Positions 5,202-10,734 of a DNA stretch of 64,000 bases are shown here, piece after piece. The stretch is from a virus (taxonomy: Duplodnaviria; Heunggongvirae; Uroviricota; Caudoviricetes). The stretch is from the IMG/VR virus record IMGVR_UViG_3300028591_000077; one strand, 5' to 3'. The notes beneath the pieces were generated by a model, which did no database searches, had not been told where the DNA came from, and worked only from the letters and a program-made list of their open reading frames with translations. Both the position numbers and the translations under genes were made by a program. How positions within the stretch are numbered: the first letter of the stretch is position 1; the number at the start of each line of letters is the position of its first letter.

Positions 5202-5313
5202 AAAAAATTATACAATACTATTTACTTTTTAGAAAAAATATTGTATAATATAATAAGCGAGCAAAAAAGATTCGCTAAATTAAGTAGTCGCAAGACAGAA
5301 AGGTAGTTAACGT

Positions 5314-5403
5314 ATGAAAAACTTGAACATGCATGCTTATCATTACGGATTTGAAGGCTATGAAGGCTTCGGTTTTTTGATGCGCTCTGACCACCGATAT
5401 TAA
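5314..5403 (+). CDS. Leader peptide 2 (29 aa, MKNLNMHAYHYGFEGYEGFGFLMRSDHRY)
   Basis: GAAAGG RBS; codons 9-23 are only Y/H/G/F/E/L(TTG)/M, matching the downstream tRNAs. Confidence 0.85.
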   Translation: MKNLNMHAYHYGFEGYEGFGFLMRSDHRY

Positions 5404-5437
5404 TTAGTAAATTCGTCGCATTGAAAATATAAAACAA

Positions 5438-5469
5438 GGGTGGTCAGATAATGATCACCCTTTAATTTT
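5438..5469 (+). terminator. Attenuator terminator 2
   Basis: GGGTGGTCA-GATAA-TGATCACCC-TTTAATTTT; 5439-5448 is the exact complement of 5386-5395. Confidence 0.85.
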
Positions 5470-5471
5470 AT

Positions 5472-8342: not shown

Positions 8343-8393
8343 AAATAAAATGCTAAATTAATTAGACAAATGTGTCAGAAGGAGAGCAAAAGT

Positions 8394-8480
8394 ATGTTAA
8401 GATTAGCTTCTATCAACGTTAAGCCTATTAGCATTCTCAAACCAGTTTGGGAAAATTTTGACATGCTTGTAGCTCAGTAA
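8394..8480 (+). CDS. Leader peptide 3 (28 aa, MLRLASINVKPISILKPVWENFDMLVAQ)
   Basis: AAGGAG RBS after GCTAAATT; I/V/K/P/W-rich core matches the downstream tRNAs. Confidence 0.8.
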   Translation: MLRLASINVKPISILKPVWENFDMLVAQ

Positions 8481-8518
8481 AGACCGTAAGTCCGATTAAA
8501 TCAATTAGACAAAAGATC

Positions 8519-8553
8519 CCCGCAGAGACTACAAGCTCTGCGGGTTTTATTTT
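8519..8553 (+). terminator. Attenuator terminator 3
   Basis: CCCGCAGAG-ACTACAAG-CTCTGCGGG-TTTTATTTT; 8525-8536 pairs with leader 3 end 8465-8475. Confidence 0.85.
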
Positions 8554-8631
8554 CGGGAAGTAGCGTAGCTTGGTTATCGCGCCTGATTTGGGATCAGGAG
8601 ATCAAGGGTTCGAATCCCTTCTTCCCGACCA
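8554..8631 (+). tRNA. tRNA-Pro(TGG)
   Basis: Canonical cloverleaf. Confidence 0.95.
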
Positions 8632-8632
8632 A

Positions 8633-8747
8633 GAGCTCATACTTATTTCTAGCATTGGGAGCCGGTGTTTGCAGGTTCGAGTCCTGCCTCCCCGACCATT
8701 ATCGGGGAGTAGGCAAATTGGTAAAGCCGCTGTTTAATAGTTGAGCC
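8633..8747 (+). ncRNA. Bulged-stem element 9: circularly permuted tRNA-Pro(TGG)
   Basis: 3' half with CCA at 8652-8698, 5' half CGGGGAG+D arm at 8703-8732; GCTCA/TGAGC stem. Confidence 0.9.
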
Positions 8748-8767
8748 TTAAAAAATCTATTATTATA

Positions 8768-8829
8768 GAGCCTATACTTATTTCCGCCAAGAGGCAATTT
8801 CCTTTTAAGAAATCTATGATAGTTAGGCC
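8768..8829 (+). ncRNA. Bulged-stem element 10 with a Lys(TTT) anticodon stem-loop
   Basis: ATTTC-CT TTT AA-GAAAT at 8797-8813. Confidence 0.8.
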
Positions 8830-8835
8830 ATTAAT

Positions 8836-8911
8836 GGGCTCTTAGCTCAGTTGGGAGAGCATCTCCTTGACGTGGAGAGGGTCGTCAGTTCGAGCCTGGC
8901 AGAGCCCACCA
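8836..8911 (+). tRNA. tRNA-Val(GAC)
   Basis: Cloverleaf, CCA. Confidence 0.95.
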
Positions 8912-9011
8912 TTAATAGAGAATATTAGGAGAAGGAAAACTCCATAAACCCTTATAGCTTCGTTCTTAGCCAGACGTAGACTAAGATAGAGTTAAACTAA
9001 TGATACAATAT

Positions 9012-9088
9012 CCGGAGTTAGTTCAGTTTGGTAGAACACTTGATTTGGGATCAAGGGGTCGTGAGTTCGAATCTCACATTTCGGACCA
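9012..9088 (+). tRNA. tRNA-Pro(TGG)
   Basis: Cloverleaf, CCA. Confidence 0.9.
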
Positions 9089-9092
9089 ATAT

Positions 9093-9169
9093 TGGAGCGT
9101 AGCTCAGTCGGTCAGAGCGCTGTGCTGATAACGCAGAGGTCGCCGGTTCGATCCCGGCCGCTCCAACCA
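9093..9169 (+). tRNA. tRNA-Ile(GAT)
   Basis: Cloverleaf, CCA. Confidence 0.95.
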
Positions 9170-9173
9170 ATAT

Positions 9174-9247
9174 AGGGGCTTGGTATAGTGGCCGTGCCTT
9201 GGTCTCCAAAACCAATGAGGTGAGTTCGATTCTTACAGCCCCTGCCA
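9174..9247 (+). tRNA. tRNA-Trp(CCA)
   Basis: A1:U72, G73, loop CT CCA AA. Confidence 0.9.
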
Positions 9248-9252
9248 AACAT

Positions 9253-9329
9253 ACTCCCTTAGCTCAGCTGGCCAGAGCAACTGACTCTTAATCAGTGGGT
9301 CCAGGGTTCGAATCCCTGAGGGAGTACCA
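9253..9329 (+). tRNA. tRNA-Lys(CTT)
   Basis: Cloverleaf, CCA. Confidence 0.95.
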
Positions 9330-9351
9330 ATTTATGAGGAGGTCGATATTA

Positions 9352-9555
9352 ATGAGATTCAATTGTAGAGTAATCTGGGTTGATCCTGTTAAGAATCGTC
9401 GTCAGTTCACAGACGTCGGTCCAAGTTATGCAATCTTCATCGCCAAAAAGAAAGTTAGCGAAGGAATGCAAGACGTAACGATTCAAGTAACTGGCGAAGA
9501 CGGCGACGACCCTTCTGACTGTAGTTGGCCACCAATTGATGCTGAGGTGGCGTAA
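9352..9555 (+). CDS. Hypothetical protein (start revised from the track)
   Basis: AGGAGG RBS before ATG 9352; the longer ORF start overlaps a tRNA. Confidence 0.6.
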   Translation: MRFNCRVIWVDPVKNRRQFTDVGPSYAIFIAKKKVSEGMQDVTIQVTGEDGDDPSDCSWPPIDAEVA

Positions 9556-9589
9556 ATAAACAATAAGCATTAGAAATGGAGAAAAAGCT

Positions 9590-9658
9590 ATGATGAAAAT
9601 GACACTAAAACTCAAATCCAAAAAACTCAAACGTTTTCGTTGTGGCTTAATTGCTTAG
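9590..9658 (+). CDS. Leader peptide 4 (22 aa, MMKMTLKLKSKKLKRFRCGLIA)
   Basis: GGAG RBS; six AAA codons plus CTA, CTC x2, TCC. Confidence 0.8.
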   Translation: MMKMTLKLKSKKLKRFRCGLIA

Positions 9659-9692
9659 GATTCAACGTCATCTTGATTATGAATGTATTGAC

Positions 9693-9728
9693 TGCCGAGG
9701 TAATTAAGCTTATCTCGGCATTTATTAT
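9693..9728 (+). terminator. Attenuator terminator 4
   Basis: TGCCGAG...CTCGGCA-TTTATT; 9698-9709 pairs with leader 4 end 9645-9656. Confidence 0.75.
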
Positions 9729-9803
9729 GCGTCCATAGCCAAGCGGTATGGCAATCGGCTTTTAACCGATGTACCGGGGGTTCGAATCCTCCTGGGCGCA
9801 CCA
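9729..9803 (+). tRNA. tRNA-Lys(TTT)
   Basis: Cloverleaf, CCA. Confidence 0.9.
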
Positions 9804-9807
9804 TAAT

Positions 9808-9886
9808 GCGCGCTTAGCTCAGTTGGTTTTAGAGCATACGACTTTTAATCGTAGGGTCCGGAGTTCGAATCTCCGAGCGCGCACCA
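9808..9886 (+). tRNA. tRNA-Lys(TTT)
   Basis: Cloverleaf, CCA. Confidence 0.95.
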
Positions 9887-10003
9887 ATTAGCTATCTCAT
9901 CTTACAATTACGATACACGTGGCGGACAGGAATCACAAAAAGCGGGTTCTTTTGTAAGATTGGATATATTAATACTGTATAATATATAGAAGGAGTTGCT
10001 AAA

Positions 10004-10183
10004 ATGGAAAAAGAAAAAGTAAATTATTGTTTACCAATTGATTTCCCGATGTATGACATGTGTCATTGTTGTGCTGATTGCGCTACGCTGTGCGCTCGTA
10101 AAAATGCGCCTGTAGAACGTATCTGTACTATGAGTGATTTCAGCTCTATATGCTCTAGTTATACAGCAAAAGAAGAAAAGTAG
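10004..10183 (+). CDS. Small Cys-rich protein (59 aa)
   Basis: AAGGAG RBS, promoter upstream, CHCCADC..C motif; not in the ORF track. Confidence 0.6.
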   Translation: MEKEKVNYCLPIDFPMYDMCHCCADCATLCARKNAPVERICTMSDFSSICSSYTAKEEK

Positions 10184-10529: not shown

Positions 10530-10603
10530 GAGCGGCCTCCTAGCCTGCCTCGAAAGCAGAGTGTTCAGAAATGAATGGGGATCGACACCTCCTGTCTCCG
10601 CCA
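10516..10603 (+). tRNA. tRNA-Ser(CGA), 8/4 acceptor/T-stem type
   Basis: GGAGACAG/CTGTCTCC 8 bp, 4-bp T stem, G73 CCA, long variable arm. Confidence 0.75.
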
Positions 10604-10637
10604 TCATCGAAAACGTCATTGAAGAAAACTTGACGAT

Positions 10638-10725
10638 GGAGGGTAATCCTGGACAGTCTGGGGCACGCCTGGAAAGCGTTGCGTAGGAGTAATCCTATCT
10701 GAGGCGGCATCAGTGCCCTCCGCCA
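10638..10725 (+). tRNA. tRNA-Ser(GGA), 8/4 type
   Basis: GGAGGGTA/TGCCCTCC 8 bp, CTGA/TCAG T stem, G73 CCA. Confidence 0.75.
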
Positions 10726-10734
10726 AATAATTAT

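Follow-up and report, generated by a model that had tools for sequence, protein, structure and literature searches.

Two tRNA-Lys(UUU) genes of an uncultured giant rumen phage are preceded by a short leader that is probably a ribosome-mediated transcription attenuator, sensing the decoding of AAA codons and gating the two genes behind it. The case is built on a short ORF, its enrichment in AAA codons, three helices with their conservation and covariation, and the link to tRNA-Lys genes, all of them obtained by computation. This reading had been put forward in a first-pass annotation of the DNA; it draws support from shuffle statistics, folding and conservation with compensatory changes in four lineages, whereas its extension to serine and leucine tRNAs further downstream fared poorly. 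Leader-peptide attenuation is a known mechanism that appears to be new on tRNA genes, for which we found no published case: a full-text literature search for tRNA genes attenuated by a leader peptide returned no precedent, either bacterial or phage-borne.

Genomic setting and relatives

The window, i.e. the whole stretch of 64,000 nucleotides that was analysed, is part of a large uncultured phage with a GC content of ~36% and all its genes on the + strand. DNA identical or near-identical to it is carried by gut samples of sheep, goat and bovine origin. ARAGORN detects 43 tRNA-type genes in the window, one of them a tmRNA, and the locus of interest lies within this tRNA island in the order tRNA cluster, gene of 67 codons' worth of protein (67 aa), leader ORF, hairpin and two tRNA-Lys(UUU) genes. 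The elements of the locus are the following.

8554-9329, + strand: tRNA cluster (Pro ... Trp, Lys-CUU), from ARAGORN.
9352-9555, + strand: 67-aa gene, its ORF and Shine-Dalgarno sequence read from the sequence.
9578-9581, + strand: Shine-Dalgarno sequence GGAG, 8 nt 5' of the leader ATG, read from the sequence.
9585-9601, + strand: 5' strand of stem P1, holding the start codons and pairing with 9632-9648 in the MFE fold.
9590-9658, + strand: leader ORF of 22 codons including six AAA, with its ATG at 9590 and TAG at 9656-9658.
9602-9631, + strand: loop of P1, 30 nt, unpaired and A/C-rich, covering codons 5-14 with five AAA; proposed stalling zone.
9632-9648, + strand: 3' strand of P1, covering codons 15-20 and sharing 4 nt with the antiterminator 5' strand.
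9645-9656, + strand: antiterminator 5' strand, ending with the T that opens the TAG stop codon.
9660-9684, + strand: spacer hairpin P2 of the MFE fold, between ORF and terminator and inside the antiterminator helix.
9693-9720, + strand: predicted intrinsic terminator hairpin from a consensus scan, 11 pairs, loop TTAAGC, −15.2 kcal/mol.
9698-9709, + strand: antiterminator 3' strand, formed by the terminator loop together with the distal portion of the 5' arm.
9721-9728, + strand: U-tract TTTATTAT, abutting the tRNA gene that starts at 9729.
9729-9803, + strand: tRNA-Lys(UUU) gene 1 (ARAGORN; Rfam tRNA, 66.7 bits).
9808-9886, + strand: tRNA-Lys(UUU) gene 2 (ARAGORN; Rfam tRNA, 69.8 bits).

Within its transcription unit, the 67-aa gene is the final protein-coding gene ahead of the leader, with its stop 35 nt short of the leader ATG; no Pfam family matched its protein. 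On the 3' side of the tRNA-Lys pair, an extended −10 promoter-like site is found near 9975, followed by two small protein genes.

Relatives of the locus were fetched from ENA, JGI and Logan assemblies with homologues of the 67-aa protein (P0001-P0012) as anchors. The resulting comparison set comprises eight leader-region sequences from rumen metagenomes in four lineages, three of which are close to each other, and the covariation described below comes mainly from the distant lineage D.

Lineage A: the window, L007, L006, L011 and L012.
Lineage B: L004 (L005 partial).
Lineage C: L008 and L009 (L010 partial).
Lineage D: L001-L003, with ~84% protein identity in the anchor gene.

Other searches did not enlarge this set. 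No relative of the stretch beyond tRNA similarity was present in the phage collection, and none was recovered from IMG/VR, either by scanning its proteins with the neighbours of 67 and 114 aa or by DNA pattern scans with tRNA-Lys gene 2 and the leader. Similarly, JGI metagenome scans by protein alignment and leader pattern gave no further relatives, and homologues of the downstream 114-aa protein led to no new long contigs. A match in Agrilactobacillus from a GTDB genome scan was discarded as a chance hit, as it falls inside a coding gene with no tRNA nearby.

An AAA-rich leader ORF

The leader ORF encodes the peptide MMKMTLKLKSKKLKRFRCGLIA. Its codons 3-14 include, as the first-pass annotation had it, six AAA together with CTA, CTC, TCC and CTC. 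Six AAA among 22 codons compare with a genome rate of 48 per 1000 (binomial P ~5e-4), a background calculated from 11,605 codons in long ORFs, where AAA represents 70% of Lys codons. Given this share, the lack of AAG among the six Lys codons of the leader (0/6; P ~0.12) is weak evidence when taken alone. Since the codon AAA is decoded solely by the UUU isoacceptor, the proposed sensor would be specific for that isoacceptor.

The alternative that survives best, although we regard it as rather unlikely, is that the hairpin acts as a constitutive leaky terminator or as a processing or stability structure (the end of the upstream unit or an RNase site in the pre-tRNA), with a fraction of polymerases always continuing into tRNA-Lys, and that the ORF is incidental. 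An A-rich sequence does make AAA triplets likely. However, when the ATG ORFs of 15-45 codons on the + strand of the window are ordered by their share of AAA, the leader comes first of 235.

Terminator and antiterminator

The pairing that had been claimed between 9645-9656 and 9698-9709 is indeed present and extends over 12 positions, including two G-U pairs. The best duplex that the 91 nt upstream can form with the 5' half of the terminator reaches −16.1 kcal/mol versus −8.5 ± 2.1 kcal/mol in dinucleotide shuffles, and this energy is matched by only 2/2000 shuffles and 37/3000 random windows of the same DNA. The whole element also folds better than its shuffles (z = −3.85). When the 5' part is masked, as it would be by a ribosome on the AAA codons, and the terminator 3' arm is absent, the MFE structure of 9632-9709 is the antiterminator closed around P2 (−17.2 kcal/mol), and the antiterminator is likewise the MFE structure in such folds in all lineages; with a ribosome placed at the stop codon, the terminator alone can form. 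In the full transcript, the terminator hairpin (−15.2 kcal/mol) is more stable than the antiterminator duplex (−12.3 kcal/mol), so that the choice between the two would be kinetic, as in trp.

The spacing of the elements is compatible with such a choice being made by a ribosome. The front edge of a ribosome lies ~12-13 nt past its A-site codon, and the last AAA of the leader ends 14 nt 5' of the antiterminator strand. A ribosome positioned on any AAA of the loop would thus have its front edge at ~9633-9642 and leave 9645-9656 free, and a ribosome at the TAG covers this strand.

A leaky terminator would fit the frequency of terminator-like hairpins in the tRNA island, of which the consensus scan found 16 versus 9.2 expected. 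It does not account for an antiterminator pairing that is unusual in two lineages and that is kept through six changed pairs: besides the window, the antiterminator duplex of L001 reaches −18.4 kcal/mol versus −10.4 ± 2.1 kcal/mol in shuffles, a value attained by 6/2000 of them.

No sigma-70-type promoter was matched between the terminator and tRNA-Lys, where there would be no room for one. A separate promoter for tRNA-Lys past the terminator is therefore ruled out, and the tRNA-Lys(UUU) genes must be expressed by read-through. Contigs from two RNA libraries of different studies that span the terminator and extend into tRNA-Lys (9605-9796 and 9649-9799) give a weak hint of such read-through, contaminating DNA being a possible source; since these libraries consist of contigs, their depth, gaps and contig ends (e.g., 9603/9605) are uninformative on RNA ends or levels.

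Stems P1 and P2

Besides the terminator and antiterminator, the MFE fold has a stem of 17 bp, P1, which buries the leader start codon and had escaped the first-pass annotation. The energy of the P1 region is −16.6 kcal/mol versus −8.6 ± 2.5 kcal/mol in shuffles, a level reached by 5/1000 of them. Two features of P1 speak for the alternative introduced above: its 17-bp duplex could be a target of RNase III type, and it buries the start codon. A stem of this stability over the start codon could also block translation altogether.

In the window without a ribosome, P1 can coexist with a shortened antiterminator of 9 bp (−5.4 kcal/mol), and in lineage D (L001) it can do so with the full antiterminator. 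As the overlap between the two is small and coexistence is possible, P1 is not a clean anti-antiterminator, and the classical three-state logic is not fully reproduced. P1, whose conserved feature is the burial of the start codon, may confine translation to ribosomes that load co-transcriptionally or that are handed over from the gene ending 35 nt upstream, and in lineages A-C it may weaken the antiterminator when the leader is untranslated.

Conservation of the leader region

The translation signals of the leader are conserved. GGAG and ATGATG are kept in 4/4 lineages, and the ORF, of 22 codons in A-C, is lengthened to 26 in D by an in-frame insertion of 12 nt. Lys codons number six per leader in lineages A and B and five in C and D, all of them AAA and none AAG; K3 of the peptide varies, and in one strain (L010) an AAA has become ACA. 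Synonymous changes are found between lineages at the Leu (CTA/CTC/CTT), Ser (TCC/TCT), Ala and Gly codons. In every sequence, the antiterminator 5' strand ends on the first base of the stop codon, in spite of different endings (GCT TAG, GCC TAG and ATT TAA). The conservation of frame, Shine-Dalgarno sequence and stop position relative to the antiterminator across the 12-nt indel is hardly expected from an incidental ORF.

At the RNA level, the antiterminator keeps 12/12 pairs in 8/8 sequences. Lineages A-C display single pairing-neutral changes (C-G to U-G, U-G to C-G and G-C to G-U), and lineage D differs at six pairs, with one double change from U-A to C-G. The 3'-side base of this double change lies in the terminator 5' arm and its partner in the terminator 3' arm has changed too, so that one position is compensated in both competing helices. 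The two terminator arms also covary in L001. These pair counts were obtained with a structure-anchored script, the MAFFT alignment setting the L001 terminator off by one base.

P1 is maintained in a comparable way. In L004, 4/4 substitutions in its 3' strand keep or improve pairing, yet they replace Arg-Cys by Tyr-His; lineage C has one mismatch, and lineage D possesses a 15-bp version with compensatory changes (e.g., AAAA/UUUU replaced by GGCU/AGCU). The position of P2 is occupied in each lineage by a hairpin of differing sequence. The upstream gene has lost its stop in lineages B and C and continues there for 22 codons in another frame, across the leader Shine-Dalgarno sequence and start, to end within the P1 loop, an arrangement that complicates the attenuator model.

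These comparisons also bear on the possibility, which we find quite improbable, that the ORF is a genuine gene for a small basic peptide with a function of its own (an amphipathic cation of the LKLKSKKLKRF type) and that the terminator merely ends this gene. The peptide core MM-x-M-x-LKLKS...KK...K-L is common to all lineages and would agree with such a gene, as would the conserved Shine-Dalgarno sequence and frame. In contrast, the C-terminal third varies freely (RC, CC, YH, HR, and SYFGLGLTI in L001) while the RNA pairing is kept, which indicates that this third is constrained as RNA and not as protein. A peptide gene would also leave both the antiterminator and the conserved stop position unexplained.

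Finally, Rfam matched tRNAs alone over 9300-10050 at E up to 1, which rules out a T-box (RF00230) or a lysine riboswitch. The least probable alternative is an RNA-only switch whose P1 loop would be bound without translation, either by the UUU anticodon of tRNA-Lys, in the manner of a T-box, or by a protein recognising CU[ACU]AAA repeats: P1 presents the A-rich stretch as a hairpin loop that is 30 nt long, unpaired and, in lineages A-C, G-free with CUNAAA-like repeats, and UAAAA is complementary to positions 33-37 of the tRNA-Lys anticodon loop, but no T-box or other Rfam family is recognised at this threshold, a bulged antiterminator with a UGGN box for the ACCA end is missing, the marginal overlap of P1 and antiterminator offers no obvious route from loop binding to a switch, and the conserved Shine-Dalgarno sequence, frame and stop position would have no explanation.

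tRNA genes downstream of the leader

The two tRNA-Lys(TTT) genes reported in the first-pass annotation directly follow the leader and are the only tRNA-Lys(UUU) genes in the window according to ARAGORN. Lys tRNA genes still follow the leader in relatives, gene 2 being nearly identical in L001. There, three Lys genes come after the leader, namely Lys(UUU), Lys(UUU) and Lys(CUU), and in the window Lys(CUU) is located upstream of the leader. The position of Lys(CUU) behind the leader in lineage D thus points to a rearrangement that kept, and even tightened, the link between the Lys leader and Lys tRNAs.

A connection of the leader to tRNAs Ser-GGA, Leu-TAG and Leu-AAG, suggested from its CTA, CTC and TCC codons, is doubtful. 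Neither ARAGORN nor Rfam detects a tRNA-Ser(GGA) between 9886 and 10735. The genes for Leu-TAG (10735) and Leu-AAG (11267) do exist, but they are located 1.0-1.5 kb on, with two protein genes and a separate promoter intervening, and the CTA, CTC and TCC codons of the leader are exchanged for synonymous ones from lineage to lineage. The sole trace of Ser-GGA is an anticodon-like stem-loop carrying GGA near 10663-10679.

Proposed mechanism

We infer that the leader is translated, that ribosomes stall on it, that the terminator functions in the host and that regulation runs in the direction described here. Transcription would come through the 67-aa gene and the tRNA cluster ahead of it, and a ribosome would load at GGAG/ATG (9578-9590) and translate the 22-codon leader. 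If AAA is decoded quickly, this ribosome would reach the TAG (9656) and cover 9645-9656; the terminator (9693-9720) would then form and the polymerase would halt at the U-tract, one base before tRNA-Lys. If tRNA-Lys(UUU) is scarce, uncharged or damaged, the ribosome would linger on the AAA codons in 9602-9631 and leave 9645-9656 free to pair with 9698-9709 before the terminator 3' arm is made. With the antiterminator formed, the polymerase would read into the tRNA-Lys(UUU) genes, which would close a negative feedback loop on AAA-decoding capacity.

Discussion

The control of tRNA genes is usually thought to reside in their promoters, through growth rate and the stringent response, and phage tRNA arrays are usually treated as constitutive cargo for codon usage or anti-defence. 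To our knowledge, all leader-peptide attenuators described so far regulate amino-acid biosynthesis or synthetase proteins. The phage leader shares many features with trpL, hisL, pheL, leuL and thrL. As in these systems, a short ORF led by a Shine-Dalgarno sequence is rich in codons cognate to the regulated product, an intrinsic terminator precedes the regulated genes and a strand at the end of the ORF competes for the terminator 5' arm. The similarity extends to the presence of an additional upstream hairpin, to regulatory codons placed ~14 nt from the antiterminator strand and to a terminator more stable than the antiterminator. On the other hand, the phage element gates tRNA genes instead of biosynthetic enzymes, so its product acts directly on the sensed step, and it is phage-borne and embedded in a tRNA operon. 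Its upstream hairpin also buries the start codon of the leader itself and shares just a few bases with the antiterminator strand (none in L001), and the leader displays neither sequence similarity to the trpL-type leaders nor an Rfam match.

Among characterised systems, pheM of Escherichia coli pheST (phenylalanyl-tRNA synthetase) is also a leader-peptide attenuator that adjusts a translation component to the level of one charged tRNA; it differs in controlling a synthetase protein, whereas the phage leader would control the tRNA genes themselves. At the E. coli tRNA-Phe gene pheV, no Phe-rich leader is present upstream. T-boxes of Gram-positive bacteria similarly use a terminator/antiterminator switch to read the state of one tRNA ahead of translation-related genes. 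However, they sense the tRNA directly, without a ribosome, by means of a specifier codon and the T-box bulge, in contrast to the phage element with its conserved Shine-Dalgarno sequence, frame and stop.

Closer counterparts are found in the same window. Two further leaders, leader 2 (5314-5469) and leader 3 (8394-8553), show in our own folds the same layout as the one described here (leader 4), with a stem hiding the start, an antiterminator over the end of the ORF, a spacer hairpin and a terminator with its U-tract directly against a tRNA. Leaders 2 and 3 are multivalent, with codons for several amino acids and many tRNAs behind them, whereas leader 4 is monovalent (AAA, one isoacceptor) and constitutes an internal gate within the operon. 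As the three leaders are unrelated in sequence, their common design argues for a functional class, and it is difficult to reconcile with a constitutive leaky terminator.

The choice of tRNA-Lys(UUU) as the gated product invites a comparison with host defence. This tRNA is an established target of AriB in the PARIS system, and phage T5 counters the attack with its own tRNA-Lys (PMC11464382, PMC12409363). The giant rumen phage likewise supplies its own tRNA-Lys(UUU), a tRNA attacked by several host nucleases; the work on T5 and PARIS deals with resistance to tRNA cleavage and not with a control of synthesis by codon sensing (PMC11464382, PMC12409363). As a conjecture, it is plausible that the leader serves as a dedicated sensor of anticodon nucleases (PrrC, RloC, AriB). 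In its fullest form, which we consider unlikely, the leader would be an inducible counter-defence switch: a cut of tRNA-Lys(UUU) by a PrrC-, RloC- or AriB-like enzyme would stall ribosomes on AAA and bring about two sequence-divergent replacement tRNAs within seconds, and, together with its sibling leaders, it would exert a codon-by-codon surveillance of decoding capacity. The data are accounted for just as well by plain homeostasis of AAA decoding in an AT-rich phage as by the sensing of a defence.

To conclude, an attenuator placed on tRNA genes would amount to a direct feedback loop, in which the ribosome gauges the reading speed of one codon and the product is the tRNA for that codon. Leader 4, with one codon, one isoacceptor and two genes, is the cleanest, simplest and most testable case in this genome. 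If confirmed, it would reveal how giant phages manage tRNA arrays of very large size and would provide synthetic biology with a natural codon-specific sensor. It would also make testable the idea that phages sense and answer host defences that target tRNAs.

Overlap of the upstream gene with leader 4

In lineages B and C, both downstream stops of the 67-aa gene that precedes leader 4, the AAA-rich putative attenuator of the window, are gone. The lengthened gene encodes 89 aa, crosses the Shine–Dalgarno sequence and start codon of leader 4 in a different frame, and terminates at a TAA within the loop of P1, the stem that buries this start codon. Translation of the upstream gene must open P1 in strains of these two lineages. 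The regions concerned here and below are the following:

L004:2180-2290 and L008:690-800 (corresponding to 9540-9620 in the window): extension of the 67-aa gene over the leader
L001:445-759: insert and Lys tRNA region
Window 9955-10003 and L001:800-850: promoter-like site with extended -10 TGTATAATAT, ahead of a 59-aa Cys-rich gene

In the most distant lineage (D, L001-L003), the ENA gene calls give the upstream gene as an 88-aa product entering the leader, with TAG taken as Gln; read with table 11, the same gene stops at this TAG after ...NNE. No need for a recoded stop was seen in the window.

Layout of the leaders and their surroundings

Leaders 2 and 3 of the window (5299-5470 and 8379-8552) share the fold layout of leader 4 with unrelated sequences: a long stem burying the start codon, an antiterminator overlapping the end of the ORF, a spacer hairpin and, finally, a terminator adjoining a tRNA. 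In L001, the terminator is separated from the first tRNA-Lys by a structured insert of ~70 nt that folds as a long hairpin (-26 kcal/mol, z = -2.3). In the same genome, tRNA-Lys(CUU) comes after the tRNA-Lys(UUU) pair, and all three Lys tRNAs are therefore downstream of the Lys leader. The promoter-like site past the pair is kept between the window and this distant lineage, and marks where the following transcription unit begins.

Further downstream, the first-pass annotation had placed a Ser-GGA tRNA. At 10530-10730, a GC-rich non-coding stretch of the window between a 114-aa gene and tRNA-Leu(TAG), ARAGORN and Rfam both give no tRNA, and all that was found of it is a GGA-bearing anticodon-like stem-loop near 10663-10679. 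Because of this absence of calls, the element may instead be a tRNA-like RNA of non-canonical or permuted form.

Divergence of the two tRNA-Lys(UUU) genes

In the window, tRNA-Lys(UUU) gene 1 (9729-9803) and gene 2 (9808-9886) are strongly divergent in sequence. Gene 2 is nearly unchanged between lineages A (that of the window) and D and altered at its 5′ end in lineage B; gene 1 has been replaced in lineage D, where the first tRNA-Lys(UUU) of L001 has a different sequence. Maintaining two divergent genes for a single isoacceptor might play a role in escaping tRNA-targeting nucleases.
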